Source: Myxococcales bacterium
GTDB taxonomy: Bacteria; Myxococcota_A; Polyangia; Polyangiales; Polyangiaceae
Assembly (NCBI GenBank): GCA_016720545.1
Contig: JADKKK010000003.1
Coordinates: 217,516-281,515, forward strand
Direction: 5' to 3'
Length of the DNA: 64,000 nt
A program made the translations under genes and the position numbers. The stretch's first letter is position 1, and every line of letters begins with the position of its first letter. Of this stretch, positions 15,231 to 46,296 are shown piece after piece. The notes beneath the pieces were generated by a model that worked only from the letters and a program-made list of their open reading frames with translations, had not been told where the DNA came from and did not search any database.

Positions 15231-16102
15231 GTCTTCTTGGCGGCCTCGCCGATTTTCAGCTTCAGCTTTCTGTCGAGGTTCGAGAGCCATGTCACGTACT
15301 CGCCCGTCTTTCCGCTGGTGAACTGCTGAAGAATGCGGACCTGCCGCTGGGCGAGCGCCCAGTCTTCCACGGAGAGCGCGTGGTCGAGCCGCACCTGCTG
15401 TGTGCGGTAGTCGTCGTTGAGCTCGGCGCGCATGGCCCGGGCCGCCTGGTCGGCGATGCCCGCCGAGACAGCGTCGCCACCGACACGGTAGCACGCGGCC
15501 GCTTCCTCGAACAAAGGGACCGCGTGGACGCCATCGGCGACGTGGAAGGGCCGGCGCTCGCGCTTCGCGTCGGCGATGGCCATGCGCTCCTGCGCGCGGG
15601 CGAGGCCCTGCGCGCCGCTCACGGGGCAGGCCGCGATGGGCGGCCCCCAGAGGACGGGCGCCTCCTTCTTGCCGAGCACCGGCCCGGTGGCCTCGTCAGG
15701 GGCGAGGAACAGGTAGCCGGCCGCCGGGAGCATGAGCGCGAGGCCGATGAAGGCCAGCGGGCTCTGCCCTTTCTTCTTCTGCTGGGTCTGGCCACCGAGG
15801 CCAGCCGAGTCCGCGATCGCGACGGCGATCTGGGTCTGGTTGACGCCGAGCACCGCGTCCGGCGGGAGCGGCGACTGCATGAAAGGGACGTTGTTGATCG
15901 TCGGCGAGGGCTGGAAGTTCAGCGCCTTCGCGAAGACGCCCGCCGGGCCGAGCTCGATGAGGAGGTGCTCGACGGCCGCCTGATCGAGCGGCAAGCGGAT
16001 CTCGCAGTGCGCGCCGCTGCCGATGAGCACGCGCTCGGACTCGATGTTGAGCTGCTCGATCTGCCCGGTGGGGAGTCGGATCTGGAAGCGTAGGACGCGC
16101 AC
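15227..16102 (-). CDS. FHA-domain membrane protein
   Basis: The N-terminus is FHA-like ('ERVLIGSGAHCEIRLPLDQAAVEHLLIELGP...PTINNVP') and there is a central TM segment ('LAFIGLALMLPAAGYLFLA'). Confidence 0.6.
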   Translation of the reverse strand: MRVLRFQIRLPTGQIEQLNIESERVLIGSGAHCEIRLPLDQAAVEHLLIELGPAGVFAKALNFQPSPTINNVPFMQSPLPPDAVLGVNQTQIAVAIADSAGLGGQTQQKKKGQSPLAFIGLALMLPAAGYLFLAPDEATGPVLGKKEAPVLWGPPIAACPVSGAQGLARAQERMAIADAKRERRPFHVADGVHAVPLFEEAAACYRVGGDAVSAGIADQAARAMRAELNDDYRTQQVRLDHALSVEDWALAQRQVRILQQFTSGKTGEYVTWLSNLDRKLKLKIGEAAKKT

Positions 16103-16123
16103 TCAACAACCTTTCTACACCGG

Positions 16124-17035
16124 CTAGAGGCCGCCCGTGATGTTCATCATGGCGGGGCCAAGGATGAGCCCCATGATGGCGAAGAAGACGAGCATCAGCG
16201 GGCCGACCATGGCCACGCCCGCCTTCGCCGCCGACTCCTCCGCGCGAACGGAGCGGCGCTGACGCGACACGCCCGCTTGGATGCTGAGCACCTCCGAGAC
16301 CGGGTTGCCGCGCTCCTCCGCTTGGACAAGCGAGTTGACGAACTCGATCACGGCCTCGCAGGGGCAACGGTTCATGAACTCGATGAGCGCGTCCTTGCGG
16401 GTGCGCCCGAGGTTCATGGTCTGGAGGAGGAGAGTGAACTCCTCGACGATGGGGTCGGCCGGGTTGCTGGACTTCTCGACCACTTGGCGAACGGCCCCGG
16501 GGAAGTCGAGGCCCGCACCCATGGAAAGCGCCATGAGATCGATGACATACGGCAAGCCCCGGCTGACCGACTTGAGTCGCTCTTGGGCCTCGCCGCTGAT
16601 CTGCATGTAGGGCATCGACCCGCCGAGCGCGAGGCCGGCGATGAGCGTGATCTGCCCGAGGTCCATCATCCAGCCGAAGATGCCGCCCACGACGCCGCCA
16701 GCGACCGTCGCGAGGATGGTGAGCGCGATGTACTCGTCGGCGCTGATGCCCATGAAGTCGCCGGCGAGGCCGATCTGCTTGTCGAGGGCCGCGCGCTGCT
16801 CGTCGGTGGGCAGGCCGCTGACCCGGAGGCCGAGCCAGCGCACGATGGGCTCGATGCTGGCCCAGGTCTCGTTGTTCGCCAACGCGCGCTGGCGCTTCAG
16901 GCCGCGGAGGCCGAAGCGGCTCGCCACGCGGCTCGGCGCGCTGCCGATCGTGTAGAGGGCCAGGGCGGCTGCGAAGCTGATGAGGACCGGCACCGAGTAG
17001 CGGAGGGTGAGGAGCTGCCAGGAGTAGGTGGGCAT
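16124..17035 (-). CDS. TadC-like pilus-assembly inner-membrane platform protein (T2SSF family)
   Basis: It is a polytopic membrane protein with GspF/TadC-like sequence ('GLPYVIDLMALSMGAGLDF'), located directly downstream of the TadB-like gene. Confidence 0.7.
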   Translation of the reverse strand: MPTYSWQLLTLRYSVPVLISFAAALALYTIGSAPSRVASRFGLRGLKRQRALANNETWASIEPIVRWLGLRVSGLPTDEQRAALDKQIGLAGDFMGISADEYIALTILATVAGGVVGGIFGWMMDLGQITLIAGLALGGSMPYMQISGEAQERLKSVSRGLPYVIDLMALSMGAGLDFPGAVRQVVEKSSNPADPIVEEFTLLLQTMNLGRTRKDALIEFMNRCPCEAVIEFVNSLVQAEERGNPVSEVLSIQAGVSRQRRSVRAEESAAKAGVAMVGPLMLVFFAIMGLILGPAMMNITGGL

Positions 17036-17036
17036 G

Positions 17037-17921
17037 TCAGAGGTCCACCGCGAGCACCTTGCGGGCGATGATGATGGAGCTGGCCCAACACGCGACGCAG
17101 CCCGTGCTGATGAGGTACCCGGTGACGCTCTTGGTGAGCGGGTCGAAGTAGCCGGGCCAGAGCGAGTTCAGGCCGACGAGCAAGCCGAACGGCATGACCG
17201 CGATGACCCAGAGCTGCATCTTGCCCTCGGCGGTCTTGGTGCGGACGACGCCCTCGAGGCGGCGCATCTCGCGGAGCGTGTTGGCCGTCGCCTCGAGCAC
17301 CTTCGGGAGATTGCCGCCGACCTGCCGACCGATGAGCACGGACGAGAGCGCCGAGTCGAGCTGGCGGCTGCCGACCCGCGCAGCCATGTGGAGCAGCGCC
17401 TGATCGAGCGTGCTGCCGACCTTCATCTCCTTCAGCGCGAGGTCGACCTCCTGACGCATCGGATCGGTGATGACCGACGCGACCGAGTTGAGCGCGCCGC
17501 CGATGCTCGGCGTGGTCTTCAGGGCGTTCGCGAGCGCGAGCATGAAGTTGTCGAGCTGCTCTTCGATGAGCTCGACCCGCTTGCGGCGCATGGCCTCGAT
17601 GTAGACGAGCGGCACCACCGCGATGAGGAGCAGGCCCGCCCACCACATGGGGATGGAGAACAGCACGTTCGCCGTGATGAGGAAGAACGCCACGCCGAGC
17701 TGCCCGAGCGTGATGTTCTGCCCCGGGATGAAGATGAACATCGGCCGCAGGCGCTGCTCGAGCAGCGAGTTGTAGCGGGCCCAGTAGCGGTACACGGGAC
17801 CCGACTGATCGGCCGCGGCGGCCCACGTGCCAGCGAAGAGCGCGAGCCCGGTGACCCCGGCGCTCGCCCACTTCAGCACCTCCGTCACGGGGGACACGTC
17901 CCCCATTCTGCCGCTCATCAT
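17037..17921 (-). CDS. TadB-like pilus-assembly inner-membrane platform protein (T2SSF family)
   Basis: It is a polytopic T2SSF-family protein. Its ATG overlaps the stop of the upstream ATPase (ATGA at 17918-17921). Confidence 0.7.
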   Translation of the reverse strand: MMSGRMGDVSPVTEVLKWASAGVTGLALFAGTWAAAADQSGPVYRYWARYNSLLEQRLRPMFIFIPGQNITLGQLGVAFFLITANVLFSIPMWWAGLLLIAVVPLVYIEAMRRKRVELIEEQLDNFMLALANALKTTPSIGGALNSVASVITDPMRQEVDLALKEMKVGSTLDQALLHMAARVGSRQLDSALSSVLIGRQVGGNLPKVLEATANTLREMRRLEGVVRTKTAEGKMQLWVIAVMPFGLLVGLNSLWPGYFDPLTKSVTGYLISTGCVACWASSIIIARKVLAVDL

Positions 17922-19789
17922 ACGTAGGGCTCCCCGGGCTTCACGAGCCCCATCACGATGAACGTATCGAGGAACGACGGCAAGTAGCCCGTGGCGCGGA
18001 ACTCACCCACGACCTTGCCGCCTGGGCCCGTGCCCGTGCGCACGAAGGCGAAGATGTGGCGCAGCTCGATGTCGCCCGATTCGCGATCGAGGCCGGTCAC
18101 CTCGCTTATCGCGGTCACCTTGCGCGAGCCGTCGGAGAGGCGGCTCTGCTGGACGATCATGTTCACGCTCCCCGCGATCTGCTCGCGGATCGCGCGGACC
18201 GGCAGGTCGAGGCCCGACATGAGCACGAGCGTCTCGAGGCGGTTGATGGCCTCGCGCGGGGAGTTCGCGTGGGTCGTGGTCATCGACCCGTCGTGTCCCG
18301 TGTTCATGGCCTGGAGCATGTCGAGCGCCTCGCCGCCGCGGCACTCGCCGACGACGATGCGGTCGGGGCGCATACGCAGGGCGTTCTTCACGAGGTCGCG
18401 GATGGTGTACTCGCCGCGCCCCTCGAGGTTCGGCGGGCGGGTCTCGAGCGAGACGACGTGCGGCTGCTGCAGCTGGAGCTCGGCCGCGTCTTCGATGGTG
18501 ACGATGCGATCTTCCTCGGGGATCGAGGCGGAGAGCACGTTGAGCAGCGTGGTCTTCCCGCTGCCCGTGCCGCCCGAGATGACGATGTTCTTCTTCGCGA
18601 CCACGCAGCGCGTGAGGAAGCGGCCCATCTGCGTGGTCATCGAGCCGTAGTTGACGAGCTTCTCGAGCGTGAGCGGCACCTTCGAGAACTTGCGGATGGT
18701 GATGCACGCACCGCGGAGCGCGATGGGCTTGATGACCGCGTTCACGCGGGAGCCGTCTTTGAGGCGCGCGTCGACGAGCGGCGACGACTCGTCGATGCGT
18801 CGGCCGAGCGGCGTGACGATGCGCTCGATGACCGCGCGCACGCGCTCGTCGTCGGTGAACCGAGCCTCCGACAGCATGAGCTTGCCGCTGTTCTCGATGT
18901 AGATCGTGTTGGGATCCACGACCATGATCTCGCTGACCTTGGGGTCGGAGAGGAAGCGCTCCAGCGGCCCAAGGCCCAGGGCCTCGTCGGAGAGCTCGCC
19001 GATGAGCGTGTCGCGGTCGATCTCGGGCGGGATCTTCAGCGCCATGTTCGCCACGATCTGGCGGAGCGCGGTGAGCACCTTCGGGCGCATCGAGGGGTCG
19101 TCGAGCTTCTTCGCGTCGATGGTGGCGAGATCGAGGTGCTCGAGGAGCGCCTTGTGGATCTCGCGGCGCATTTCGACGTCTTTTCTTCGCTCTTCGTCGC
19201 GGGGCCGCGACGGCATGAGCTGCGCCTGCATCGCCGGGTTCTGCCCGAGCGCCTGGGGAGGGAGCGGGGGCGCCACGCCGCGCGTCTGCGCGTGGTGCTG
19301 CTGCATGTGCGCGGGCACCTGCCCCGACATGCCCATGTGACCCTGCTGGCCGCCGTGCTGCCCGTGCTGCCCTCCGTGCGCCCCCGGCTGACCCATGTGC
19401 GGGGGCATCTGCGAGGGCATCGGCGGCGGCGCCATCGGCGGCAGGCCCGTCCGCGGGCGGGTCTGCGGCGGCGGCGGCGCCTGCGGCGCGTCGCCCGGGA
19501 AGAACGCGACCGTGAAGTCGCCGAGCACCACCGGTGTGCCGAACGGCACCTCGATCGCCTCGCGCTTCAGCAGAATGCCGCCGGCGAGCGTGCCGTTCGT
19601 GGAGACGTCCTCGACGAGGATCGACTGCGGCCCAATCTGCACGACCGCGTGCTGCCGGGACACGAGATCGCTCTCGAGCCGGAGCACGCACTGCGCGTGA
19701 CGCCCGATGGAGATGGGTCCGGTGACGGCCATCGTCTCCTGACGCTGGCCCTGAGACTCCGACTGGATGAGGACCCGAACCGAGGTCAT
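17918..19789 (-). CDS. FHA-domain-fused CpaF/TadA-family secretion ATPase
   Basis: The N-terminus is a canonical FHA ('[30 protein letters not shown]...DVSTNGT'). A ~170-aa Pro/Gln/His/Met-rich low-complexity linker follows. The CpaF core comes next, with Walker A ('[10 protein letters not shown]') and '[32 protein letters not shown]'. An AGGAG ribosome-binding site lies 6 nt before the ATG. Confidence 0.85.
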
Positions 19790-19828
19790 GCCCTGCTCCT
19801 CGCAGTTTCGGCGGCGGCGGCCATGGCC

Positions 19829-19888
19829 GCTACTTGGCCGCTTACTTGGCCGCTTACTTGGCCGCTTACTTGGCCGCTTACTTGGCCG
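19829..19888. repeat. 12-bp tandem direct repeat (cttacttggccg) x~5
   Basis: Four perfect units plus one degenerate unit lie immediately 3' of the secretin gene. The rightmost unit supplies the secretin stop codon (TAA), and each further unit carries TAA in the same frame. The repeats are in the intergenic space before the FHA-CpaF gene. Confidence 0.75.
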
Positions 19889-21206
19889 ATGGGGGAGCCT
19901 TCGGGAAGGCCTCCACGTTGTCGATGTCCCCCGAGTAGTCCTTGAAGCTGTTCAAGGCGTTGTTGATGATCTCGAGCGAGCTCTTCGGCACCGAGTCCAC
20001 GACGCTGGGGATGATGAACACAGCGCCTTCGGTCTCGGCGTTGTCCCAGCGCTGGCTCCCGAAGAGCGCCCCGACGACGGGCAGCTGCGCGAGGCCCGGC
20101 AGGCCCGCGCTGTCGCGGCGACGGGTCTGGGTCTTGATTCCCGAGAGGACGAGCGCTTGGCCAAGCTTCAGCGTGACGAGGGTCTCGAGCTTGGTGGTCG
20201 AGCGCCCCGGCACCGTGCCCGAGGCCGCCGGCGTGAGGTCGGCCACATCGGCCGCGAGCTTGATCTCGACGTCCTTCGAGTTGACGTCGTACCGCGGCAG
20301 CACGGTCACGTTCGTGCCGAACTGCACCTTGACGAGGCCTACCGAGTTCGCGGTGACCTGCTGGAAGTTCTGCTCGCCGCCGCTCTGGAAGGTGGCCTCG
20401 GAGCCGTTCGACGTGATGACCGTCGACTGCTTCATGATGCGCACCCAGCCGTAGCGCGACCCGATGTCGAGGCGCGGCATGGGCTGGTTCACGATGTTCG
20501 CCTCGGCGCGCGTGGCGGTCTTGGCGATGAAGTCGAAGTCGATGCGCGTGGCGACGATCTGCTGGCCTTGGCCGGAGACGCCGCCGATGGCGTCGGGCCA
20601 CCCGATGCCCACCGTGTAGTTCCAGCTCTTCTCGTACTGGACGAAGTAAAAGTCGAGTCGCATCAACAGCTTACGGTCGGCGGCGCCCTGCCCCACCGTG
20701 ACCACCGACTCGACCTGCCCTTGATACAGCGAGGCGATCTGCTGGATGCGCTTGGAGTCGGATTCGCTCGAGACGCCGCCCTCGATGAACACGCGGCCGC
20801 CCACTCGACGCACCCGAATGCCCGGGATGCCCTCGAGGAGCTGCACGAGCTCCTTCTCGACCACCTGCGGCGGGCGCTGAGCCACCGAGATGTCGTACGT
20901 CACCTGCGACTTGTCCTTGCGGATGAGGAGCAGCGTGGTGGAGCCGGGCTTCACGGCGCGGAGCACGAACTGCGACTTGTCGTCGGTGAGCTGCACGCTC
21001 ACGATGCCGGCCTGACCCTCGGTGTACTGGTCGATGCCGGACGCGGGGATGGTCTTGGTCTCGCCGATGGCGAGCGCGATGTCCTCGCGCTTCTGCGAGC
21101 CCTGCGCCGCGGCGGCGCGAGGCACGATGGAGAGCGAGATCGCCGAGGCGACCCCCATCGCCCCCGCGAGCCAGAAGATACGTGTGGAGCGCTTCAAGCT
21201 AAGCAT
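19878..21206 (-). CDS. Secretin, CpaC/RcpA-like outer-membrane channel
   Basis: The internal ATG gives a signal peptide ('MLSLKRSTRIFWLAGAMGVASA'). The C-terminal secretin domain reads '...LVLSGIKTQTRRRDSAGLPGLAQLPVVGALFGS...AVFIIPSVV'. Its start overlaps the CpaB stop (TGATG). The upstream 170 aa of the track ORF are rejected. Confidence 0.75.
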   Translation of the reverse strand: MLSLKRSTRIFWLAGAMGVASAISLSIVPRAAAAQGSQKREDIALAIGETKTIPASGIDQYTEGQAGIVSVQLTDDKSQFVLRAVKPGSTTLLLIRKDKSQVTYDISVAQRPPQVVEKELVQLLEGIPGIRVRRVGGRVFIEGGVSSESDSKRIQQIASLYQGQVESVVTVGQGAADRKLLMRLDFYFVQYEKSWNYTVGIGWPDAIGGVSGQGQQIVATRIDFDFIAKTATRAEANIVNQPMPRLDIGSRYGWVRIMKQSTVITSNGSEATFQSGGEQNFQQVTANSVGLVKVQFGTNVTVLPRYDVNSKDVEIKLAADVADLTPAASGTVPGRSTTKLETLVTLKLGQALVLSGIKTQTRRRDSAGLPGLAQLPVVGALFGSQRWDNAETEGAVFIIPSVVDSVPKSSLEIINNALNSFKDYSGDIDNVEAFPKAPPSAK

Positions 21207-22033
21207 CACGGGTTCTGTCCTCCGCCACCGATCACGGTGGGCCCCCTGGGTGTACGCACGCCAGGGATGGTGGCCCGCTGCTCGGGCTTCAAGATTGCGT
21301 CCATGTTGATGTCGACCAGACCGACCGTGGTCTTGTTGTCCTCGGGGTTGCGGACCGCGACCGCGAGGCGGCCACGCTCGGCGGCGAGGGCGAGGATCTG
21401 GGCCTCCGGGAGCGTGAGGCTCAGCGTGAGGAGGTTCTCGCGATCGGCCGACTTGTCGCGGCTCTCGCTCGCCTCGACCGACGTGTCGACGCCCGTCGCG
21501 AGCACGAGGACGCGCTGGAGGAGCACCACCGCGTTCTTCGCCTCGCTGATGCCGCCGGCGCCGAGGACGCCGATGACGTCGACGTAGTCGCCCGGGCGGA
21601 TGAGCGCGATGCTCGAGTCGTCGCGGGCGGTGCGGATCGACACCGCGCGGTAGCCCGGCTGCACGAGCACGCTGAGCTCCTTGCGGTCCTCGTTCGCCGT
21701 GGCGAGGTCGGTCCACATGAGGGTCTGACCGGCCTTCACGGTGGTGCCCACGCGGAGGTTCAAGATCTTCGACTTCTCGGCCTCCTTCACGGAGCGCTCT
21801 TCGACGTAAGCGATCGGGATCTCGCGCGTCGCGATGTTGTCTTCGCTCAGCGCCTTGCCGCGATCGACCTGCTTGACGACGGTGAGCACGCGCACGCGCT
21901 CACCGCCGGAGGCCTCGACCTCGAAGCGGCGCTGGTACAGAAAGAGCAGGAAGATCCCGAGGATGCCGACCACGACGGCGATGGCGAGGGCGCGACGATT
22001 CACGAAGTGGCCTCCGCGTGGGCGTCCGAGCAC
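21206..22033 (-). CDS. CpaB-like Flp pilus assembly protein (SAF domain)
   Basis: It has an N-terminal TM ('ALAIAVVVGILGIFLLFLY') and CpaB/RcpC-like sequence, and lies immediately upstream of the secretin. Confidence 0.65.
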   Translation of the reverse strand: MLGRPRGGHFVNRRALAIAVVVGILGIFLLFLYQRRFEVEASGGERVRVLTVVKQVDRGKALSEDNIATREIPIAYVEERSVKEAEKSKILNLRVGTTVKAGQTLMWTDLATANEDRKELSVLVQPGYRAVSIRTARDDSSIALIRPGDYVDVIGVLGAGGISEAKNAVVLLQRVLVLATGVDTSVEASESRDKSADRENLLTLSLTLPEAQILALAAERGRLAVAVRNPEDNKTTVGLVDINMDAILKPEQRATIPGVRTPRGPTVIGGGGQNP

Positions 22034-22249
22034 AGGCTCGTGTTCGTCATGGGGATCTCCTCACCCTCCGGGCGGCGACGCCGTACTGTGGCGCGCGAGG
22101 CGCTCGCTTGCGGTTTCATGAGTTTGTCCACGGTAGCGACAATTCCGCGACGCAGGAAGCCTCATCGCGCGCGTCCCGACGCGGCGACCGCGACGCAGCG
22201 CGCGGTTCCATCCCCACGGCACGAATCCGCTGCGGGCGTCCGCGCGGCC

Positions 22250-25177
22250 TCAGAAGCTCACGCTCACGTTCGCGAGGAAGCTGCGCCCGTTCTGCAGGAT
22301 CGTGCGCTGGCGGAACTCGCGGCTCGGAATCGATTCGTAGCGGGAATCCGCGAGGTTGTACGCGCCCACGGCGTACCGAGCGTTCAGGCGCTCGATCTCG
22401 CCGGAGAACACGAGGTCGCCGACGATGCCCGCGCGCGACGAGCCCTGGGGCGGGTCGGTCACTTCGTTGTCCGAGTCGAAGCGCGGCCCCTCGACCGAGA
22501 CGCGCATCATGGCCATCAGCGATCTCCCCACGATCGGCGCCGCGCCCTTCACCGAGCCGAGCACCACCGGCGAGTTGGGGACCTGGCGGAGCGTTGGAGC
22601 GTCGAGGTACCGCGCCTTCTGCACCGAGACGGTGGCGCTGGCCATGAAGCCCTGACGCCACTCGCGTCGCAGCTCCGCCTCGCCACCCGCGACGAGGACG
22701 GGCGAGTCGCTGTTCTCGTAGCGGAGCTTGCCCGCCGAGATCTCCTTCAGCTCGATCAGGCCGCTGACGTAGTTCGTGTATCCTGCAAGGAGCGCGACGA
22801 GCGTCGGCGAAATTCGCTGCGACACCTCGACCTCGCCCGAGGTGACCTGCTCGGGCTTCAGGTCCGCGGCGGCGGCCCGATCGGAGCCGTTCGAGAAGAG
22901 CTCGTAGACGCTCGGCGAGCGGAACGCCTTGCCGCCGAGCAGCTTGATCTTTCCGCCCTTCCACGTGTCGAAGATCAGCGCGAGGCGCGGGTTCGTCGCG
23001 CCGAGCGGATCGAAGGCGACGTTCGAGTAGTAGTCGACGCGGGCGCCCGCGGAAATCTTCACGGCCTTCACGGGCGTGATGTCGCCGACCAGGTAGCCGG
23101 CGGCGTTCATGTAGGGGTCGTTGCGGTTCGTGTAGACCTGCGACGCGTCGGCCGCGAACTGCCTCGCCTGGAGGTGCCCGATGAGCTCGGCGCCGACGGT
23201 GATGCGCAGGGAGTCGGCGGGCTTCAGGACGAGGCGCTGCTCGCCGCCGATCCACTTCCCGTAGAACACCTCGGTCTCGAGGCTCGGGCGCGGATCAGAC
23301 CCGTAGGTGCCGTAGTAGTTGTAGAGGTTCAGGTGCACGCGCGAGAGGCTCTCCACGCGCTTGCCGAGGTTGGGCTCGACGCGCAGCTCGACGAGCCCGC
23401 GTGTGTCGCGGACCTTGCTGCGCGGGTCGCCGAGGACCGACTCGTACGCGCCGGTGGGGATGCTCTTGGTCCGATGCGACAGCATCCACTGCACCGTGAT
23501 GAAGCGCCACCAGGCACGCCCCCCGATCGAGCCGGCGCTGAAGCCATCCGCGTTGCGGACGTTGCCGTCGGACGGGAGGCCGTCGGCCCCGAGCTCGGGG
23601 TCCGTCGCGCGGGGGTCGTTCCGGTACTCGGGGAAGTAGAAGTCCCGGCCGCCGCTCCGGGCGATCGCGAGGGAGGTCCACACGCCCCCGTCTTCGCCTA
23701 GCCGCAGAACCCCGGTCGCGCGCGCACGACCGACGCCGTCGAGCGCGGTGCCTCCGGCGACCTCTCCGTGCGTGCGCACCTGACGGCTGCGAGTGACGAG
23801 GTTGATGACACCGAAGAACGCACCGGTACCGTAGAGGACGGACCCCGGGCCTCGGACCACCTCGATGCGGTCGATGTCGTCGAGGTCCACACGGGCGTGG
23901 AACCCCACCAGGGACGAGCCGGCGTAGTTGTCGTTCGTGGACTGCCCGTCGATCGTCACCAGGATGCGATTGCCATAGTCGCCGGGCCTCGAGAAGCCAC
24001 GCACGCCGACCGCTTCGTAGTTTCGATCGTCGCTCAGGTACATGCCGCGCACACCACGCACGGCCTCCGAGATGGTGGGGTAGCCCATCGCGCGGAGCTC
24101 GGCGCCGGTGATGATGGTGACCGACGCGGGCGCGTCCTCCACCGACTCGAGCGAGCGCGAAGCCGCGGCGACCTCGTCGAGCTCGAGCAGCTCGGCCTCC
24201 ACCTTGGCCTGAGTCTGCTTCCGCACCCTGACCTTGCGGACCACGGCGCGGTAGCCGCCCTTCTCGACGCGCACCTCATGTTCACCTTCGGTGATCGACA
24301 GCACGGCGGGGGTGAATCCGCTCGCGTTGCCGTCGACCGTCACCAGCGCTTCGCGGACGTCAGCGGACACGAGGAGCGTGCCGAACACGGCGGCGAGGCG
24401 CGGACGCACGACGGTGGTCGCGTTCGCGGCGATCTCGGCCGCCACCTCGACTCCCTGAAATCCGTTCTTCGTGACGTACAGCGTCCGGCGGCCCATCGGC
24501 AGGCGCTCCGTGCACGGGATCACGCAGAGCGGCTTCGCGTCCTCCGGAGCGAGCCGAACTTCCGCGCCGGTCGGGTCGCCCTCGACCCGAAGAGTCCCGA
24601 AGATTGGCGCGAGCGGGATTCGAACGGTCGTGTCGGTGCCGAGCTTCAGCTCGACCCCCTCGACCTTGCCGGGCTCGTGGGCCGCTCGCTCGCCGAGGAA
24701 GGTGTAGCGGCCGGCAGGCAGCGCGAGGACCATGGGCGTCTGCCCGCGCGCTCCGAGGTCCTTGCGGTCGATGAAGAGCGTCGCGCCTGGCGGGGTCGAC
24801 TCCACGCGGACGACCGCGACGAGCGGCCTGATGCGCGCGATGGCGTCGCCGATGCGAGTCCGGATCGCGGGGTCGGGCTCTCCGTCCAGCGCGCGCTGGT
24901 AGTAGCGGTACGCGTCCGCCGGCTGCTTCAGCTGCTCGTAGGTCCGCGCGATGTTGAAGAGCACGTTCTTGTTGGGAACGAGCCTGTTGGAGGCCAGAAA
25001 ATGCTCGAGCGCGCCGTTGAAGTCGCCGACCTCGTAGCGCTTCGCTGCGAGCCGAAACTGGAAGTCCGCCTCGTCGGCGACGTCGTCGGCGTAGGCCACG
25101 GCGGACACGCCGAAGAGGCCCACCAGTGAGAGGGCTGTCAGTCCGAGGCGGAGAACGCGCGGAGCCTTGCGGAACAT
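22250..25177 (-). CDS. TonB-dependent-receptor-like outer-membrane barrel with N-terminal TPR and three PEGA-like domains
   Basis: It has a signal peptide, then TPR ('YEVGDFNGALEHFLASN...YEQLKQPADAYRYYQRAL') and three PEGA/carboxypeptidase-regulatory-like repeats. A TonB-dependent-receptor plug follows ('DAPASVTIITGAELRAMGYPTISEAVRGVRGMY...RGFS') and then a long beta-barrel ending in Phe. Confidence 0.75.
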   Translation of the reverse strand: MFRKAPRVLRLGLTALSLVGLFGVSAVAYADDVADEADFQFRLAAKRYEVGDFNGALEHFLASNRLVPNKNVLFNIARTYEQLKQPADAYRYYQRALDGEPDPAIRTRIGDAIARIRPLVAVVRVESTPPGATLFIDRKDLGARGQTPMVLALPAGRYTFLGERAAHEPGKVEGVELKLGTDTTVRIPLAPIFGTLRVEGDPTGAEVRLAPEDAKPLCVIPCTERLPMGRRTLYVTKNGFQGVEVAAEIAANATTVVRPRLAAVFGTLLVSADVREALVTVDGNASGFTPAVLSITEGEHEVRVEKGGYRAVVRKVRVRKQTQAKVEAELLELDEVAAASRSLESVEDAPASVTIITGAELRAMGYPTISEAVRGVRGMYLSDDRNYEAVGVRGFSRPGDYGNRILVTIDGQSTNDNYAGSSLVGFHARVDLDDIDRIEVVRGPGSVLYGTGAFFGVINLVTRSRQVRTHGEVAGGTALDGVGRARATGVLRLGEDGGVWTSLAIARSGGRDFYFPEYRNDPRATDPELGADGLPSDGNVRNADGFSAGSIGGRAWWRFITVQWMLSHRTKSIPTGAYESVLGDPRSKVRDTRGLVELRVEPNLGKRVESLSRVHLNLYNYYGTYGSDPRPSLETEVFYGKWIGGEQRLVLKPADSLRITVGAELIGHLQARQFAADASQVYTNRNDPYMNAAGYLVGDITPVKAVKISAGARVDYYSNVAFDPLGATNPRLALIFDTWKGGKIKLLGGKAFRSPSVYELFSNGSDRAAAADLKPEQVTSGEVEVSQRISPTLVALLAGYTNYVSGLIELKEISAGKLRYENSDSPVLVAGGEAELRREWRQGFMASATVSVQKARYLDAPTLRQVPNSPVVLGSVKGAAPIVGRSLMAMMRVSVEGPRFDSDNEVTDPPQGSSRAGIVGDLVFSGEIERLNARYAVGAYNLADSRYESIPSREFRQRTILQNGRSFLANVSVSF

Positions 25178-25251: not shown

Positions 25252-26775
25252 TCACCGCTGGAGGATGATGTCCCCGGTCGCGGGCGGCTTCACGGCGGGC
25301 ACCGGCGAGGACGGCGCCGCCTTGGGGTGCCCCGCCGCGTTCGTGTGAGCGCCCTTGGTAGGCGACGCGGATGCGGTGGGCGCGGCGCTCGCCGAGGCGA
25401 GGGCGCTCGCGGACGGTGCGGACGCCAAGGCGACCGGCAGGGCAGTCGCGCTCGGCGGGCTCACGAGGGTGGCCGCCGGCGGCGGGGCGGGCGCGGTGGC
25501 CTGCGTCGCACGCCAGACGAGGACGATCGCGAGCGAAAGCAGCCCGAGCGCCGTGGCGCTGGTCGAGATCACGAGGGCGATGTTGCGGCTCGGTGGCGGG
25601 GCGCCGTGGACCTCGGGGCCGGTCGCGGAGGCCATCGAGAGCCCGGTGCCAGGGGTCGAGCTGCGCTCCTGGCCGGCGAGCGTCACGCCCACGACAGGGG
25701 CGGCGGCGGAGGCCACCAGGCTAGGCTGCGGCCCGCCCGTGGGAAGCGACGCGTCGGCGGTGGGCAACTGCGGGAGGTCGAGCGGGGCGAGCTCGCCCGT
25801 GACCATGAGCGGGCCCCTCGAGAGCTGTCGCTCGATGACGGCGCGGATACGCGCGCGCTCCTCCGCGAAGTGCTCGGCGACCGCCGTGCCCACTGGGCGA
25901 AGCTGCGGGGGCGGGTCGAGCGTCGCCAAGTACGCGTCGATCGGGGCGCGCATCGCGGCCGCGGTGGAGAACCGGTCGTCCGGCTTGGGCGCGAGCGCGC
26001 GAGCGCACACCTCAACCAGCGCCGGTGGCGCGTCTGGGGCGAACTCGGTGAGCTTCGGCAGCTCGCCCATCGCGAGGTAGTGGATGATCCCTGCGTCCGG
26101 GAGATCCTTCCACATGCGTCGGCCCGCGACGGCCTCCCACAGCATGATGCCCACGGCGAAGATGTCCGCGCGGCGATCCACCTTACGGCCCAGCGCCTGC
26201 TCGGGCGCCATATAGGAAATTTTTCCTTTGATGACGCCGGTTTGCGTCTTCTGCGACGACGTCGCCGCCTTCGCGACGCCGAAGTCGACGACCTTCACCT
26301 GGCCGTCGAAGGTGACGAAGACGTTGTGCGGGCTCACGTCGCGATGCACGACGTTGAGCGGCGTCCCGTCCCAGTCGACCGCCTCGTGCGCGGCGTGGAG
26401 GCCCTCGAGCACCTCGGCGAGGACACGGACGTGAGAGTCGACCGAGAGCGCTCCTTTGCGAATGAGGCGGGAGCGCACGTTGGAGAGGGGCTGCCCCTCC
26501 AGGTACTCCATGACCAGCATGTACTTCCCGTCGCCGTCCATGACCTCGTAGGTCTGGACGATGTTCGGGTGGTTTAGGCGCGCCGCGAGCCGCGCCTCGT
26601 CGAGGAACATCTCGCGAAACTCGTACTCCTCCGCGAGCTCTGCCTTCAGCTGCTTGACGACGACGAGCTTGGTGAAGCGGCTCGGCCCCTCGGCGGCGGC
26701 GAGGTAGACCGTCGCCATGCCTCCCCGCCCAAGCTCCCCCAGGAGGCGGTATTTTCCAAGGGTAGGCTCCGTCAT
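25252..26775 (-). CDS. Ser/Thr protein kinase with TM segment and Ala/Pro-rich extracytoplasmic tail
   Basis: The kinase motifs are present ('LGRGGMATVYLA', 'VVK', 'HRDVSPHNVFV', 'DFGVAK', 'YMAPEQ'), followed by a TM ('IALVISTSATALGLLSLAIVLV'). Confidence 0.85.
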   Translation of the reverse strand: MTEPTLGKYRLLGELGRGGMATVYLAAAEGPSRFTKLVVVKQLKAELAEEYEFREMFLDEARLAARLNHPNIVQTYEVMDGDGKYMLVMEYLEGQPLSNVRSRLIRKGALSVDSHVRVLAEVLEGLHAAHEAVDWDGTPLNVVHRDVSPHNVFVTFDGQVKVVDFGVAKAATSSQKTQTGVIKGKISYMAPEQALGRKVDRRADIFAVGIMLWEAVAGRRMWKDLPDAGIIHYLAMGELPKLTEFAPDAPPALVEVCARALAPKPDDRFSTAAAMRAPIDAYLATLDPPPQLRPVGTAVAEHFAEERARIRAVIERQLSRGPLMVTGELAPLDLPQLPTADASLPTGGPQPSLVASAAAPVVGVTLAGQERSSTPGTGLSMASATGPEVHGAPPPSRNIALVISTSATALGLLSLAIVLVWRATQATAPAPPPAATLVSPPSATALPVALASAPSASALASASAAPTASASPTKGAHTNAAGHPKAAPSSPVPAVKPPATGDIILQR

Positions 26776-26867: not shown

Positions 26868-27260
26868 TCAGGGAGACGGGCACTTCCCGCGGCAGGCGGC
26901 CCGAACCGCGTGGCACTTGTCGATGCAGGGCTTCAGCTTGTCGGCGCACTTGCTGAGGCACTTGTTGTCGTTCAGCGTCTTCTGCTTCTTCGCCTCTTCC
27001 TCGGTCGTCTTGCAGGCCTTGAAGCAGGGCTCTTCCTTCTTCAGACAGAGCGACGAACAGTAGGTGCTGCCCTGGTCGCAGCGCTGCCCGCACGCCGTGG
27101 CCTGCTCGGCGTCGGCGCAGGCCTGCTCGACCAGCTCCACGCCCTCGGACGACAAGTCAGCCGACCCCGCACAGCGCACCGAGCTCGAGGGGGAGAAGGC
27201 GAGCAGCCAGGCGCCGAAGAAGGTCGCGACCGAGCCGCTGATCCGCGCGAGGGAGCTCAT
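26868..27260 (-). CDS. Small secreted Cys-rich protein (about 14 Cys, repeated CX3C pairs)
   Basis: The internal ATG gives a signal peptide ('MSSLARISGSVATFFGAWLLAFS'). The mature ~105 aa contain paired CX3C motifs ('PCFKAC', 'KCLSKC', 'PCIDKC', 'ACRGKC'). The ATG overlaps the upstream gene's stop (ATGA). Confidence 0.5.
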   Translation of the reverse strand: MSSLARISGSVATFFGAWLLAFSPSSSVRCAGSADLSSEGVELVEQACADAEQATACGQRCDQGSTYCSSLCLKKEEPCFKACKTTEEEAKKQKTLNDNKCLSKCADKLKPCIDKCHAVRAACRGKCPSP

Positions 27261-28237
27261 TGGAGATCGAGGTCCTGGGGCTTGACGCCGGGGACCACTT
27301 CCATGATCGACATGGCGGTGGTTCCAGAGCCGGCCGCGCGCCGCGCGGTGATGATCACCTGGGTGCCGCCGTTGAAGTACGCCCGCATCGTGCCTTCGGG
27401 GTGCTCGGGGGCGATCGAGCGCCAGTCGCCCGTGCTGGCGGCCCACTTGTCGTAGAAGACGCCCACGTCCTCTGGCGCCAGCGAGGTCTCGTAGATGCGC
27501 ACGCCATACGGGCTGCCGACGACCTCGGCCGTCATGAGGCGCTTGGCGCCGTTGGGGCGCGGGAGGAGCGAGTCGCTGCCGGGAGCGGTGCCGTCCGTGT
27601 TGGCGATCTTCGCGAAACTAAAGGAGTTGTCGGTCCAGGCGGTGACCACGCGGGTGCCGTGGGTGGTCTCCCGCGCATAGACGTACCGAAGCTTGCCGAG
27701 GTCGCCAAGGTCCTGCGACTCGGCGAAATTCTTGAGGGCGTCCGTGGCGCTGTTGGACGTGCGCTCTCCCTTGATGAGGCACATCACCGCGCCCTCGCCC
27801 GTGCTCCCCTGGGTGCGGAGGATGCCCGAGTGCATCGTCTTCGGCAGCTTGTGCCCGTCGACCACCATGTTCGCCTTGGGCACCTGCGACCAGAGCTCTC
27901 CAAGGGCGCCTTTGTCTTGCTCGCAGCGGCCCTCATAGTCGTCCAGAATCGACTTCACCGTCGCGTCGGTCATGCCTTCGCGAAGGAAGAAGCTCTGGCC
28001 GTTGAGGCGGACTTCACTGGCGCCGTCGCTCGCGAGCGGCGCGATCTCGCGGCCAAACTTGAGGGTCGCCTTGCCGATATCGGCCTTAGCGGTGTGGGTC
28101 GCGAACAGGCCAACGCCGAGACCCGCCACGAGCACGACCGCAGCTGCGCGGCCCGCGCCGCGGATTTGCTGTGCGCGGGCGCTGTTGAAGCCCTTGGCGT
28201 TTCGCCAGGCGATGAGCAGGGGGCCGAGCATGTTCAT
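27257..28237 (-). CDS. Hypothetical N-terminally anchored membrane/periplasmic protein
   Basis: It has a TM near the N-terminus ('AAVVLVAGLGVGLFA') and is co-operonic with the pseudopilin genes. No recognisable domain was found. Confidence 0.5.
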   Translation of the reverse strand: MNMLGPLLIAWRNAKGFNSARAQQIRGAGRAAAVVLVAGLGVGLFATHTAKADIGKATLKFGREIAPLASDGASEVRLNGQSFFLREGMTDATVKSILDDYEGRCEQDKGALGELWSQVPKANMVVDGHKLPKTMHSGILRTQGSTGEGAVMCLIKGERTSNSATDALKNFAESQDLGDLGKLRYVYARETTHGTRVVTAWTDNSFSFAKIANTDGTAPGSDSLLPRPNGAKRLMTAEVVGSPYGVRIYETSLAPEDVGVFYDKWAASTGDWRSIAPEHPEGTMRAYFNGGTQVIITARRAAGSGTTAMSIMEVVPGVKPQDLDLQ

Positions 28238-28280
28238 GGCGACCGCCCCTGGCCTCACTTCGGTTCATGGGACCAAACTC

Positions 28281-28796
28281 CTAGTTCGCCGCGCCAGCGA
28301 TCTTACCCTTAACGTAGCCGAACATGCCGCTGAAGCTGCCGTCTTCCGGTGTCTCGTTGCACACGGCGGTCGACGTGAGACTGTTGACCTTGAGCGAGAG
28401 CCCCATCCCCCGGGTGGAGGTGTTGGGCTTCGGATTGATGACGGTGGTCGAGGCGTACGTGACCTGGGTCTTCGCCATGAAGCCGCTGGTCTTCGCCTGC
28501 CCTGGAGCGTTCGCGAGGGCCTCGGCCGACTGGCTGTCGGCGGCGCCGACGCCGCCTCCCACCCCCGCGGAGCCCTGCGAGCGGCTCGTGTTTCCGTACT
28601 GAATCACCTGCCGCTGGCACTGGTGAGAGGCGTAGTCGAGCGCCATGGAGCGCGCCTGCTGGTTCTGCGTGAGCTTCACCGTGTACGCGTTGCCCATCAT
28701 CATGGTGAGTCCGAGGAAGGAGACCATCACCGGCAGCACCACCGCCGCTTCCACCATCGCCGCTCCCCGAAGGGAGAATTTGCGGGACTTCTTCAT
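28281..28796 (-). CDS. TadE-like pseudopilin
   Basis: The N-terminus ('RGAAMVEAAVVLPVMVSFLGLTMMMG') is the TadE/TadF signature. The ATG at 28796 is in frame. Confidence 0.65.
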   Translation of the reverse strand: MKKSRKFSLRGAAMVEAAVVLPVMVSFLGLTMMMGNAYTVKLTQNQQARSMALDYASHQCQRQVIQYGNTSRSQGSAGVGGGVGAADSQSAEALANAPGQAKTSGFMAKTQVTYASTTVINPKPNTSTRGMGLSLKVNSLTSTAVCNETPEDGSFSGMFGYVKGKIAGAAN

Positions 28797-28812
28797 GGTT
28801 GGGTCCTGGGTT

Positions 28813-30273
28813 CTAGTGGAGCATCTGGGGGATGACCGGGCCCGTGGGGTCGATGCCGAGCGCGCCGTTGATTGCGCCGCTGGCCGCCGCGGTGCCCTTC
28901 TTGATGGTGTCGTCCACGATGGCGCCAGCGAACGGACCGCCCTTACCGATGGCGCCTTCAATCGACTTGTACGCGTCGCTGCCCTTGATGGAGTCGCCGA
29001 GCTTGCCGCCGAGGAAGTCGGCCACCGGGCCGATGAAGAGGTCGGCGAGGGCGCCGCCGAGCAGCGAGCCGAGCGACGGAGACTTCACGTGGCGGATACG
29101 GGCCATCCACCGCATGTTGAAGGTGACCTCGGTCGAGCTGTCCCCATTGCACTTGGCGTCGGCAAACTTCGCGTCGCAGTCGTAGTAGAACTCGGCCTGG
29201 GCGGAGTAGATGGGGGCCTGGGGGACGCGGCCGCGAGCGGCGACCGCTTGGGAGTACACGGCGCCCTTGCTCCCGATGGCGAGCGCCACCTTGCTCTCCG
29301 CGAAGCCTTCGTCGTACTTCGTAGGCGTGAGAATCGACCAGATTTGCAGCCAGTCGTTGCCATTCGACGCGGGGCCGTACCACTTCTTCCAGCCGAGGTT
29401 CTGGTTCTTCCACACACCTCCGTTGCAGTAGCCGCGCCCTTCGACGAAGCGCCCGCCGACCCAGGAGATGATGGAGCCGAGGAAGCTCGGGAAGAAGCTG
29501 CCCACTGAGTCGGTGACGCGCAGGCAGAGCTCTGCGTTTTCGGCGAGCGTGACCGGAAGGCCGAGCTTCATGCCGAAGGTGGTGGGCTTCGCGCCGCCGG
29601 CCGCTGGGGCGCCGGCCGCGCCGGTCGCGGGCACCGACGGAGGCTTGCCGCCGCCAAAGTACTTGTCGAGGTTCATCGAGAAGTTGAACCCCGGGATATT
29701 CGACGGCCCGATCGCGAGCCCGGTCGTCTTGTAGTCGGACCCCACGCTGTAGCCAGCGTAGGTGCCGTACCACGGGTAGCCGATGGCCACCGCGGTGCCG
29801 GTCAGGCTGAGCGCCGGCAGGCCAATGTTCACGGCCGAGGCCTCGTAGGCGTTCTTCGCGACGGTGACCGCGCGGTCGGCCGCGGTGGCGACCGGCAAGG
29901 CTTCGCAGCAGAAGGCGCACCCGACGATGGTGGCAGCGCAGGTGGTGAGCAGCGTGACGGCGAGATCGAGCAGGTCCTTCAGGACGCACAGGATCACCCA
30001 GATCAGCGCGATGACGTACATCACGATGTTGATCACGCTGATGATGTTCATGCCGCGGGCGTGGACGACGGCCGACGTGAAGGCCACGTGGTCCGCGCTC
30101 TCTTGCATGCGGTCTTTGAAGACGACGGCGTCGCCGATGCCCTTCATGAACCACATCGCGCCGATGAGGAACGTGGCCATGAAGAGGCCCATCACCATCA
30201 CGGCGCCGCGCGTGTCCTCGCGCAGGTCACGCACGTCGCGAGTTCCGAGCTGGTCGAAGGTTGCGGTTGTCAT
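28813..30273 (-). CDS. TadG-like / large membrane-anchored pilus-associated protein
   Basis: It has N-terminal TM helices and a Gly-rich C-terminus, and lies between the two TadE-like genes. Its start overlaps the stop of the upstream TadE-like gene (TGATG). Confidence 0.5.
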   Translation of the reverse strand: MTTATFDQLGTRDVRDLREDTRGAVMVMGLFMATFLIGAMWFMKGIGDAVVFKDRMQESADHVAFTSAVVHARGMNIISVINIVMYVIALIWVILCVLKDLLDLAVTLLTTCAATIVGCAFCCEALPVATAADRAVTVAKNAYEASAVNIGLPALSLTGTAVAIGYPWYGTYAGYSVGSDYKTTGLAIGPSNIPGFNFSMNLDKYFGGGKPPSVPATGAAGAPAAGGAKPTTFGMKLGLPVTLAENAELCLRVTDSVGSFFPSFLGSIISWVGGRFVEGRGYCNGGVWKNQNLGWKKWYGPASNGNDWLQIWSILTPTKYDEGFAESKVALAIGSKGAVYSQAVAARGRVPQAPIYSAQAEFYYDCDAKFADAKCNGDSSTEVTFNMRWMARIRHVKSPSLGSLLGGALADLFIGPVADFLGGKLGDSIKGSDAYKSIEGAIGKGGPFAGAIVDDTIKKGTAAASGAINGALGIDPTGPVIPQMLH

Positions 30274-30818
30274 CAGTCCACCTTGTACCTTGCGCCTTGA
30301 TTGGGCATCGTCGCTTCGGCCGTGAGGATCTTGCGAGAGCCGGGACAGATGAGTCGACCCATGGGGACCGTGCAGCTGTAGGTCGCCTGCACGCGCACCC
30401 GAACGGGTCCGTAGACGTCGGACATGCTCGAACCGTCTTGGACCGAGACGCTGACGTTCGAGACGGAGCCGCTCGTGATCCAGGGGCTCAGCGCGAGGCC
30501 GGCGGCCTGCTTGACGTCGGTGTTGCTGCCCTTTTCGCCGGGGTTGGTGGGCTTCTTCACCATCACGATGGCCGCGCGCGCCGCGGTGATCGCCGCGTGC
30601 TGAACGCCGAGGTTGACGGTGTAGATCTTCGCCACCTGTACGAAGGAGAAGAACGTGGTGAGCAAAGGCACGACGGCGATGACGAACTCGACCAGGGCCG
30701 CTCCGCGACGATCGTGGAGGAGCGACGCGGGCGCAGAAGCCGAGTCGGAGCTGCCGGAGTCGGCGGAGCCTGACTCATGCGGCGCAGGATTAAAAAATAC
30801 CGACCTGAGCGACTTCAT
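30273..30818 (-). CDS. TadE-like pseudopilin
   Basis: It carries the TadE signature 'RRGAALVEFVIAVVPLLTTFFSFVQV'. The ATG at 30818 was checked. Confidence 0.65.
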   Translation of the reverse strand: MKSLRSVFFNPAPHESGSADSGSSDSASAPASLLHDRRGAALVEFVIAVVPLLTTFFSFVQVAKIYTVNLGVQHAAITAARAAIVMVKKPTNPGEKGSNTDVKQAAGLALSPWITSGSVSNVSVSVQDGSSMSDVYGPVRVRVQATYSCTVPMGRLICPGSRKILTAEATMPNQGARYKVD

Positions 30819-31357
30819 TTCGACCCCCAATGGAAGGCGGTGGTCACGGCGACGCCGATAAAAATACACGGCCCCAGGCGAAACCACGTCATGGCCTCGG
30901 GCTCGACCGCCTTGCGCTTTTCTTTGGGCAAGACGGGATTGAACATCAGATAGATGGTGTTCTTCAGTGTCCTGAAGAGCTTGCCGTCGTAGGCGAGCCG
31001 CGCCGGCGCGATCACGAGCGCCGCCATGAAGGCGTACATCTCGAGCTCGAGGCCGAGCGACGGGTGGCAGAGCGCGCCAAGCGCCGCGAGGAGCTTCAAG
31101 TCGCCGCCGCCGATCGCGTTCTGGCGATAGAGGACCAGCGGGACGACCGCGGTCACACAGGCCCCTGCGACGGAGAAGCCGCCTTCAAAGGCAGCTTCGT
31201 CCGAGGCTATGCCCTGCGCAGAGGCAGCGACGAAGTGGGCGATGGGGGCGAGAAACAGCGCCGGTAGCGTCACCCAATTGGGTATCTGGCCCGACTTCAT
31301 GTCGTACACCGCAGCGATGCCACTTACGATGACCGCTGCGATGAGAAAGGGAATCAT
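30815..31357 (-). CDS. Prepilin peptidase, CpaA/TadV type (A24 family, no methyltransferase domain)
   Basis: It is a polytopic membrane protein with the two catalytic Asp regions ('AAVYDMKSGQIPN' and 'GGGDLKLLAALGA'). Confidence 0.7.
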   Translation of the reverse strand: MIPFLIAAVIVSGIAAVYDMKSGQIPNWVTLPALFLAPIAHFVAASAQGIASDEAAFEGGFSVAGACVTAVVPLVLYRQNAIGGGDLKLLAALGALCHPSLGLELEMYAFMAALVIAPARLAYDGKLFRTLKNTIYLMFNPVLPKEKRKAVEPEAMTWFRLGPCIFIGVAVTTAFHWGSK

Positions 31358-31484
31358 GGCACCATGGCTACCGAATACGGGCGCTTTTTTTTCGCGTGGC
31401 GTGTGGGTCGTGCGCGTGTCCGCGAGGACGCGGGGGCCTGCTCGGTCACCCAAGCCGAGCAGGCCGCACACACGCGCAAGCGGA

Positions 31485-46286: not shown

Positions 46287-46296
46287 GGCTCGTCAA

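Follow-up and report, generated by a model that had tools for sequence, protein, structure and literature searches.

A TonB-dependent-receptor-like barrel protein with a TPR and triple-PEGA front end, paired with a Ser/Thr kinase inside a Kil-like Tad locus of a Myxococcales bacterium: a candidate trans-envelope signalling module

To our knowledge, signalling from the outer membrane to the cytoplasm via TonB-dependent receptors is known only with anti-sigma factor and extracytoplasmic function (ECF) sigma factor partners. In FecA/FecR/FecI and FpvA/FpvR, the receptor, made of plug and barrel, has an additional periplasmic domain after its signal peptide and before its TonB box; its partner is a single-pass inner-membrane protein that extends through the periplasm and governs a cytoplasmic regulator. 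We describe a pair of genes that resembles these systems in layout and differs from them in the kind of partner. The genes are located in a stretch of 64,000 nucleotides (nt) from a Myxococcales bacterium with a G+C content of ~70% (the window, to which all positions refer). One, called here the barrel gene, codes for a TonB-dependent-receptor-like protein with a TPR domain and three PEGA domains at its N-terminus; the other codes for a Ser/Thr kinase, and both are situated within a locus for a Tad-like apparatus. In our best explanation, to which we give about an even chance, a Ser/Thr kinase and a TonB-dependent-receptor-like barrel together form a conserved two-gene module for trans-envelope signalling, and the barrel protein is its outer-membrane half.

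Another relevant precedent is the threonine phosphorylation pathway of the H1 type VI secretion system (H1-T6SS) of Pseudomonas aeruginosa, with the components TagQRST, PpkA and Fha1. There, an envelope or outer-membrane cue acts through a membrane Ser/Thr kinase, an FHA protein reads the phospho-threonine and a contact-dependent machine assembles. The analogy was raised by Seef et al. (PMC8460266) for Kil, the Tad-like prey-killing apparatus of Myxococcus xanthus (PMC8460266, PMC12075869). The hallmarks of Kil given by these authors are an FHA-ATPase, a short secretin and extra FHA proteins; Kil systems have neither TadD nor RcpB, and a single ATPase was stressed for M. xanthus (PMC8460266). 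The sensor upstream of Kil assembly, which would perceive contact with prey and set off assembly through FHA proteins, was described as unknown (PMC8460266; bioRxiv 2026.07.08.737194). Also in M. xanthus, the TonB-dependent transporter (TBDT) Oar is needed for secretion of PopC, and its N-terminal extension, one CarboxypepD_reg domain, is dispensable there (PMC6434023). Gomez-Santos et al. described 34,893 TBDTs in five N-terminal architectures made of CarboxypepD_reg-type, STN and AMIN domains; TPR and PEGA were not considered (PMC6434023). Our full-text literature searches returned no description of PEGA-TBDTs or kinase-TBDT pairs.

The barrel gene and the parts of its product were delineated from the open reading frame (ORF), Pfam matches, an AlphaFold2 (AF2) model with its per-residue confidence (predicted local distance difference test, pLDDT) and Foldseek searches.

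22250..25177, minus strand: barrel gene, encoding an outer-membrane protein of 975 amino acids (aa) with TPR, three PEGA, plug and beta-barrel (ORF, Pfam, AF2, Foldseek)
25097..25177, minus strand: signal peptide, residues 1-27, cleavage after AYA, before DD (translation; AF2 helix 8-22)
24821..25096, minus strand: N-terminal TPR domain, residues 28-119 (Pfam TPR_2; AF2 helices, pLDDT 84-90)
24185..24820, minus strand: three PEGA beta-sandwich domains, residues 120-331 (Pfam PEGA in three stretches; AF2 strands)
24155..24181, minus strand: TonB-box-like motif LDEVAAASR, residues 333-341 (alignment to the Cir TonB box region)
23783..24142, minus strand: plug domain, residues 346-465 (Pfam Plug)
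22253..23782, minus strand: beta-barrel of ~22 strands, residues 466-975, with short loops and a C-terminal Phe (Pfam, AF2, Foldseek)

The ORF is a real gene. Its G+C contents at the first, second and third codon positions (0.68/0.48/0.91) follow the coding pattern of high-GC genomes, and its product is identical to a database protein (P0001) from a Myxococcales metagenome-assembled genome (MAG) that is annotated as 'TonB-dependent receptor'. The original prediction for this gene, made from the sequence alone, had described a plug plus 22-strand barrel and had proposed structural prediction as a check; the architecture was borne out by both Pfam and the model. Pfam returned Plug PF07715 at residues 346-457 (E 5e-20, 72 bits vs a cut-off of 23.9) and TonB_dep_Rec_b-barrel PF00593 at residues 575-860 (E 1e-14, 55 bits vs 27). 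The AF2 model, built on 33 homologues (pLDDT 82.4, predicted TM-score 0.66), had a plug at residues 346-462 followed by ~22 long strands at 470-975. Among 198 Foldseek matches in the PDB at E<=1e-3, the plug and barrel superposed on BtuB (TM-score 0.83), PfeA, FpvA and Cir; a profile match between this plug and that of Cir had an E-value of 6e-24. The protein ends in ...VSVSF, with an aromatic last residue. Both the plug and the 22-strand barrel with a C-terminal aromatic residue that are expected of the TonB-dependent receptor/transporter superfamily were therefore present, and the protein is indeed a plug-and-barrel protein of the outer membrane, with a front end of TPR and three PEGA domains that is unusual.

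For this front end, the model showed five TPR-type helices at residues 30-119 and three beta-sandwiches at 121-190, 193-260 and 265-330, followed by a low-confidence linker at 331-345 in which the pLDDT fell below 50 at the TonB-box-like motif. The three PEGA stretches scored well above threshold (E 4.5e-27, 94 bits vs 20.8), while TPR_2 at residues 72-98 barely exceeded it (28.4 bits vs 27). The original prediction had spoken of TPR followed by three PEGA/carboxypeptidase-regulatory-like modules; TPR and PEGA held, and the second part of the label did not. CarboxypepD_reg PF13620 stayed under threshold (23.6 bits vs 32.3, no single stretch passing), and the residues that matched it weakly are those taken by PEGA at 94 bits. 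Since CarboxypepD_reg was found only below threshold, the beta-sandwich modules are PEGA domains and not Oar-type ones. Pfam gave no match to STN PF07660 at E<=1 and detected no peptidoglycan-binding domain in the barrel protein.

Like Oar, the barrel protein is a myxobacterial TBDT-type protein whose N-terminal extension contains beta-sandwich structure, and it has a TonB-box-like motif where Oar has its TonB box region; unlike Oar, it has three PEGA domains, a highly conserved TPR domain and a kinase partner. Membership in the Oar subclass was rejected, as the extension is made of PEGA and TPR instead of CarboxypepD_reg.

The second of the two genes codes for the following protein.

25252..26775, minus strand: Ser/Thr kinase of 507 aa, 74 nt upstream of the barrel gene (Pfam Pkinase, E 4.6e-41)
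25942-26751, minus strand: kinase domain
25513-25584, minus strand: transmembrane helix
25273-25512, minus strand: Ala/Pro/Ser-rich periplasmic tail
25255..25272, minus strand: C-terminal hexapeptide DIILQR-COOH (family motif D/E-I-R-[LMR]-x-R)

We compared the surroundings of the barrel gene in a set of 86 loci with barrel homologues (36-83% identity). In an all-against-all clustering of the flanking ORFs, the Ser/Thr kinase was the only conserved neighbour, present at 67 of the 86 loci compared to 9 for the next cluster. Of the 63 loci with sufficient flank, 54 had the kinase gene immediately upstream in the same orientation, and in several of the others it was convergent or one gene away. 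The pair also occurred as a unit in unrelated contexts: with polysaccharide and polysaccharide-export genes in Labilithrix sp. (locus L001), with VanW and a response regulator (L004) and with cobalt transport genes (L006). Genes for uptake (ABC transporter, periplasmic binding protein, TonB-ExbBD) were not conserved near the barrel loci, and neither anti-sigma factor nor ECF sigma genes were conserved neighbours.

The kinase of the window has the K, HRD, DFG and APE elements. The family kinases were mostly ~30-35% identical to it and shared one common design. Among the 58 kinases adjacent to a barrel gene, 55 had one transmembrane helix, and the periplasmic tails were low-complexity segments of 79-182 aa (median 142) with 17% Ala and 17% Pro. 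DFG was found in 57 and HRDxK in 49 of the 58, so the family kinases are predicted to be catalytically active. All 58 end in Arg, nearly all of them in D/E-I-x-x-x-R. For tails selected by the motif, Asp or Glu stood at position -5 in 64/69, Ile at -4 in 62/69 and Arg at -3 in 45/69; the rest of the tail was not conserved. Each of the 64 motif-bearing kinases was located near a barrel gene, and the D-I-R-x-x-R ending was present in 0 of 13 other kinases from the same loci and the window. Three large Ser/Thr kinases of the window besides the partner, all without this ending, provided internal negative controls.

2273-4738, minus strand: large Ser/Thr kinase
48913-51441, plus strand: large Ser/Thr kinase
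54997-57810, minus strand: large Ser/Thr kinase

In some loci, two tandem motif-bearing kinases were positioned beside one barrel gene (L001 7131-9956, L008 13816-17180, L009 6121-9117), which suggests duplication of the kinase partner. Apparent natural fusions of kinase and barrel (P0108 of 1468 aa, P0349 and P0388) were rejected, because these proteins stem from low-quality assemblies in which the gene calls are frameshifted or merged; they only re-confirm the adjacency.

The comparison with the Fec and Fpv systems can now be made at the level of parts. FpvA was among the best structural matches of the barrel protein. Unlike in FecA and FpvA, the extension is made of TPR and three PEGA domains (~320 aa) and not of STN. 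In place of an anti-sigma factor such as FecR, the partner is a Ser/Thr kinase of the Hanks type that has a disordered Pro/Ala tail and, at its C-terminus, the hexapeptide, and the ECF sigma gene of the FecI systems has no conserved counterpart near the barrel loci. The kinase tail is similar to TonB in having one transmembrane anchor on its N-terminal side, a Pro-rich spacer that would be long enough to cross the periplasm and, at the C-terminal end, an element that presumably binds a TBDT. It differs from TonB in that only six residues are conserved and the TonB C-terminal domain is missing, in the presence of a cytoplasmic kinase domain and in having no adjacent ExbB/ExbD.

Conservation within the barrel family was distributed unevenly. 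The mean conservation was 0.86 for the plug, 0.79 for the TPR domain, 0.75 for the linker, 0.67 for the barrel and 0.59-0.69 for the PEGA domains. The plug was the best-conserved region, with 49 of 117 columns invariant, and the TPR domain was the most conserved part outside it (24 of 92 columns invariant). The extracellular loops are short, and their conservation is close to that of the strands. The scan procedure picked two TPR peptides as the most conserved patterns of the family; the patterns of the metagenome scan sit in the TPR domain, so that its 80 loci carry TPR by construction. The TPR domain is rich in invariant Asn and Arg, as seen in SNRLxPNxNxxFNIAR (S63 N64 R65 L66 ... N69 ... 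N75 A77). TPR domains clamp C-terminal peptides with Asn/Arg surfaces of this sort, for example in Hop/EEVD and PEX5/PTS1. By analogy, the invariant Asn/Arg run may be a surface of the kind that clamps C-terminal peptides, which we take as a lead. At E<=1e-30, the complete TPR-PEGA extension was found in ~229 clusters (50% identity), nearly always at the N-terminus of proteins of ~950-1050 aa; named homologues came from Polyangiaceae, Labilithrix and 'Myxococcales' MAGs.

The linker has a nearly invariant consensus, E-V-[ST]-A-[AV]-S-R, with V336 conserved in 63, A338 in 64, S340 in 66 and R341 in 67 of the 67 distinct sequences. In a profile alignment, the version of the window, LDEVAAASR, fell on the Cir TonB box region ETMVVTASS, with the usual V-V-T core reduced to V-x-A. 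The check for a TonB box that the original prediction had suggested therefore gave a divided answer: a conserved motif stands at the canonical place, but its core is degenerate. Judged by the alignment, the motif appears to be a positionally conserved but degenerate TonB box, and the protein may depend on TonB.

We also looked for covariation between the kinase tail and the extension. Mutual information between the motif and the extension was discarded as a guide, with its top columns falling in variable PEGA regions and reflecting clade noise. A scan by charge class, with 820 tests of motif positions vs the extension, placed among its top four tests two TPR residues, 46 and 49, that are one helical turn apart on TPR helix 1. 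Residue 46 was Lys only where motif position -3 was not basic (5/5), and residue 49 was acidic where motif position -2 was basic (7/7). This charge complementarity between TPR helix 1 and motif positions -3 and -2 could hint at a contact, and is suggestive only.

These observations can be assembled into a mechanism. The barrel and plug would sit in the outer membrane, and the extension of TPR and three PEGA domains would hang into the periplasm, just before the TonB-box-like motif, where FecA-type transducers carry their signalling domain. The kinase would be anchored in the inner membrane by its single helix, with the Pro/Ala-rich, TonB-like tail spanning the periplasm. The invariant tail peptide D-I-R-L-x-R-COOH would dock on the barrel protein, most likely in the groove of the TPR domain, and an event at the cell surface or in the plug would be passed to the cytoplasmic kinase. 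If this is true, a kinase would be a second type of output for TonB-receptor signalling, the TPR and PEGA domains would have a new role, and a subset of the very many orphan myxobacterial kinases would acquire a function.

Several points weigh against the signalling reading. A genuine transporter would be just as likely to have a highly conserved plug together with a TonB-box-like motif, and the gene adjacency could mean that the kinase regulates the barrel instead of signalling from it. About five loci, as well as Pajaroellobacter, have the barrel gene with no kinase adjacent to it. An FHA gene was not a conserved neighbour outside the clade with Tad-embedded pairs. The charge signal ties with PEGA columns that are clade markers and amounts to about two independent events.

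Some of these points would suit an ordinary TonB-dependent importer of a conserved substrate, with a kinase that merely regulates it or is co-transcribed and with an incidental position in the Tad locus. The complete plug and barrel with BtuB-/Cir-like fold and size, the very high conservation of the plug together with the motif at the TonB-box position, and the lineage-specific character of the Tad linkage all agree with an importer; loops about as conserved as the strands would fit one conserved ligand. Such a function leaves unexplained, however, the periplasmic TPR-PEGA extension of 320 aa, the higher conservation of TPR than of the barrel, and the invariant C-terminal peptide on a TonB-like kinase tail. 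Conserved uptake genes were absent from the vicinity, and none of the substrate-specific NCBIfam TBDT families (haem, siderophore, B12, Cir, FhuA, SusC) reached its cut-off. The best match, TIGR01785, had 87.7 bits vs a cut-off of 316.85, and all matches ran through residues ~320-515 (plug) only. The original prediction had regarded clustering with iron or vitamin-uptake paralogues as a reason to doubt a link to the Tad locus; the protein does not cluster in this way, all NCBIfam scores being far under the cut-off, and identification as a paralogue of iron or vitamin importers was rejected on the same grounds. We consider an ordinary importer unlikely.

An envelope tether or housekeeping module seems to us quite improbable. 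Here the PEGA/TPR arm and the kinase tail would link both membranes or bind peptidoglycan, and would report on or maintain envelope integrity in a role unrelated to predation. One point in its favour is Pajaroellobacter abortibovis, a bovine pathogen with a reduced genome of 1.82 Mb (CP016908.1), which retains an orthologue (L091 10001-12922) with intact TPR core and EVxAASR next to MlaD/ABC, SecDF and YajC genes. The wide spread of the family in varied contexts, including the polysaccharide-export genes of L001, and the short extracellular loops point the same way. Still, the lack of a detected peptidoglycan-binding domain and the missing adjacent kinase in Pajaroellobacter itself speak against a tether, and the insertion of the pair into an FHA-rich operon is left unexplained. 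The tether overlaps with the signalling reading, because a perturbation of the envelope could itself be the signal.

A further question was whether the barrel protein is a part of the Tad machine. The genes of the locus are all co-oriented on the minus strand, and the barrel gene was confirmed to lie, as originally claimed, between the CpaB-secretin block and the Ser/Thr kinase of the locus.

26868..31640, minus strand: whole upstream Tad block (same order in L003, L087, L088 and L090)
31485-31640, minus strand: Flp pilin
30815-31471, minus strand: A24 prepilin peptidase
30273-30887 and 28281-28961, minus strand: TadE-like genes (longest-ORF bounds)
28813-30273, 27257-28258 and 26868-27446, minus strand: genes of unknown function in the upstream block (longest-ORF bounds)
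13486..22050, minus strand: whole downstream Tad block (synteny in relatives)
21206-22050, minus strand: CpaB/RcpC
19878-~21209, minus strand: short secretin
17918-19789, minus strand: FHA-fused T2SSE ATPase (FHA PF00498, E 1.5e-9)
17037-17921, minus strand: TadB
16124-17035, minus strand: TadC
15227-16102, minus strand: FHA-like protein
13486-15192, minus strand: TPR part and second ATPase

As the Kil hallmarks of Seef et al. are present, we consider that the locus encodes a Kil-like Tad system, in contiguous form, and that it belongs to a myxobacterium of the Polyangia type. It shares with Kil of M. xanthus (PMC8460266, PMC12075869) the FHA-fused ATPase, the short secretin, CpaB, TadB/C, Flp and TadE-like pilins and extra FHA proteins. 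It differs in being one contiguous cluster, in its second ATPase and, in this sublineage, in the kinase-barrel pair. No terminator-like site was found in the intergenic gaps; the scan for promoters and terminators was uninformative.

Two comparative tests were made. In the first, the search for Tad genes covered the 46 barrel loci whose flank reached 8 kb or more (mean 16 kb). Only two of them, L002 (80% identity) and L003 (72%), had any, and the other 44 had none. The second used a reciprocal set of syntenic loci found via homologues of the FHA-ATPase. In L088 (ATPase 92% identical), the kinase and barrel genes were at the same place. In L087 (82%) and L090 (78%), a gene of 113-117 aa was followed directly by CpaB, with neither kinase nor barrel; L087 comes from a genome of 9.9 Mb and shares its flanks, M1 peptidase/enoyl-CoA hydratase and PSCyt2, with the window. 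In L089 (Labilithrix luteola, ATPase 70%), a gene of 333 aa and a small ORF on the opposite strand preceded CpaB, again with no kinase or barrel. The Tad loci in L087, L090 and L089 were otherwise complete and had their own small TPR protein. Exactly two genes, the kinase and the barrel, thus set the window, L002, L003 and L088, which have both, apart from the syntenic loci of the close relatives L087, L090 and L089, which lack both, so the most parsimonious account is that the pair was inserted in an ancestor of the sublineage of the window.

The original prediction had proposed that the barrel protein could be an export or anchoring component of the apparatus and that its orthologues should be tested for co-occurrence with Tad/Kil-like loci across Myxococcota. 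The protein might work as an exporter in the manner of Oar, or it might be a pilotin or anchor in the outer membrane that replaces, for example, the missing TadD/RcpB. TadD has a TPR domain, as does the barrel protein, and the gene is directly upstream of CpaB-secretin, co-oriented, with gaps lacking a terminator-like site. The precedent of Oar, which the prediction had invoked, is real, as Oar is a case of protein export by a TBDT (PMC6434023), and Kil does without TadD and RcpB (PMC8460266). Yet with Tad genes in only 2 of 46 homologous loci, three syntenic loci that are otherwise complete without the barrel and have a small TPR protein of their own, an extension of PEGA/TPR instead of Oar-type CarboxypepD_reg, and the words 'TonB', 'receptor' and 'plug' absent from the 22 supplementary files searched that accompany the description of the kil clusters of M. 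xanthus, we judge such a role very improbable.

The conserved co-location with Tad genes that is expected of a core apparatus component was, then, not found among the relatives. Because neither the barrel-side and Tad-side tests nor the kil files bear it out, a core structural, export or anchoring role is not supported. Annotations and models should not treat the barrel as a structural component of the Tad apparatus, nor as its exporter or iron-uptake part. We consider the barrel protein more likely to form the outer half of a signalling pair that spans the membranes than to serve the machine in export or anchoring, because its constant partner across relatives is the kinase gene and not the pilus genes.

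It is still plausible that, in this lineage, the barrel is linked in function to the Tad locus; the link would pass through the co-inserted kinase and the FHA proteins, and would be one of regulation, not of export or anchoring. An active-looking Hanks-type membrane kinase and FHA components do share the locus, as expected for kinase-FHA control. In the sublineage of the window, the module was placed by insertion into an operon for a Kil-like Tad machine that has an abundance of FHA proteins, which bind phosphothreonine; there the kinase probably controls assembly or activity of this machine. Its output would be phosphorylation, recognised through the FHA-ATPase or the FHA-like protein. The resemblance to the H1-T6SS pathway lies in the combination of genes for a kinase, an FHA-ATPase and an FHA-like protein. 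The differences are at the envelope: the outer-membrane part is a TBDT-like barrel and not the lipoprotein TagQ or the periplasmic TagR, and the kinase has no folded periplasmic domain. We regard as a tentative and rather doubtful possibility that the pair is a previously undescribed trans-envelope device, in which a TBDT-like sensor is read by a Ser/Thr kinase via a tail peptide held in the TPR domain and, in this lineage, triggers Kil-like assembly through FHA proteins as a contact or envelope sensor. A kinase with an outer-membrane partner in the middle of the operon is a concrete candidate sensor upstream of Kil-type machines.

The Kil-like locus has two T2SSE ATPases (13486-15192 and 17918-19789), one of them FHA-fused, and the same number was observed in L003 and L087-L090. 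The second ATPase follows a small TPR protein; the two are separate genes in relatives and possibly one ORF in the window.

Another observation concerns the surroundings of the locus. A kinase-less barrel homologue (P0103, L005 10001-19538) is three genes away from a pair of enoyl-CoA hydratase and M1 peptidase/HEAT genes. Genes of these two kinds flank the Tad-like locus both in the window (32933-36509) and in L087. That the homologue in L005 lies near the same landmark genes is a hint that this region may be rearranged repeatedly.

Just downstream of the Tad-like locus, at 9098-10444 (minus strand), there is a gene for a PSCyt2/PSD2/PSCyt3 protein (DUF1549/1585/1588, 'planctomycete cytochrome'-type), with syntenic counterparts in L087 (19520-20845), L088 (19688-20947) and L090 (16178-17449). 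A type IVa pilus block, pilM-N-O-(P)-Q, is located ~5 kb from the locus at 36531-43637 (minus strand). It has a PilQ with AMIN and STN domains, along with PilO, PilN and PilM; the PilM frame is open for 850 codons, and the PilM match covers only the last ~340. Downstream of this block, at 46223-48031 (plus strand), we observed a gene for a protein with FIST N and C domains, a putative sensory domain.

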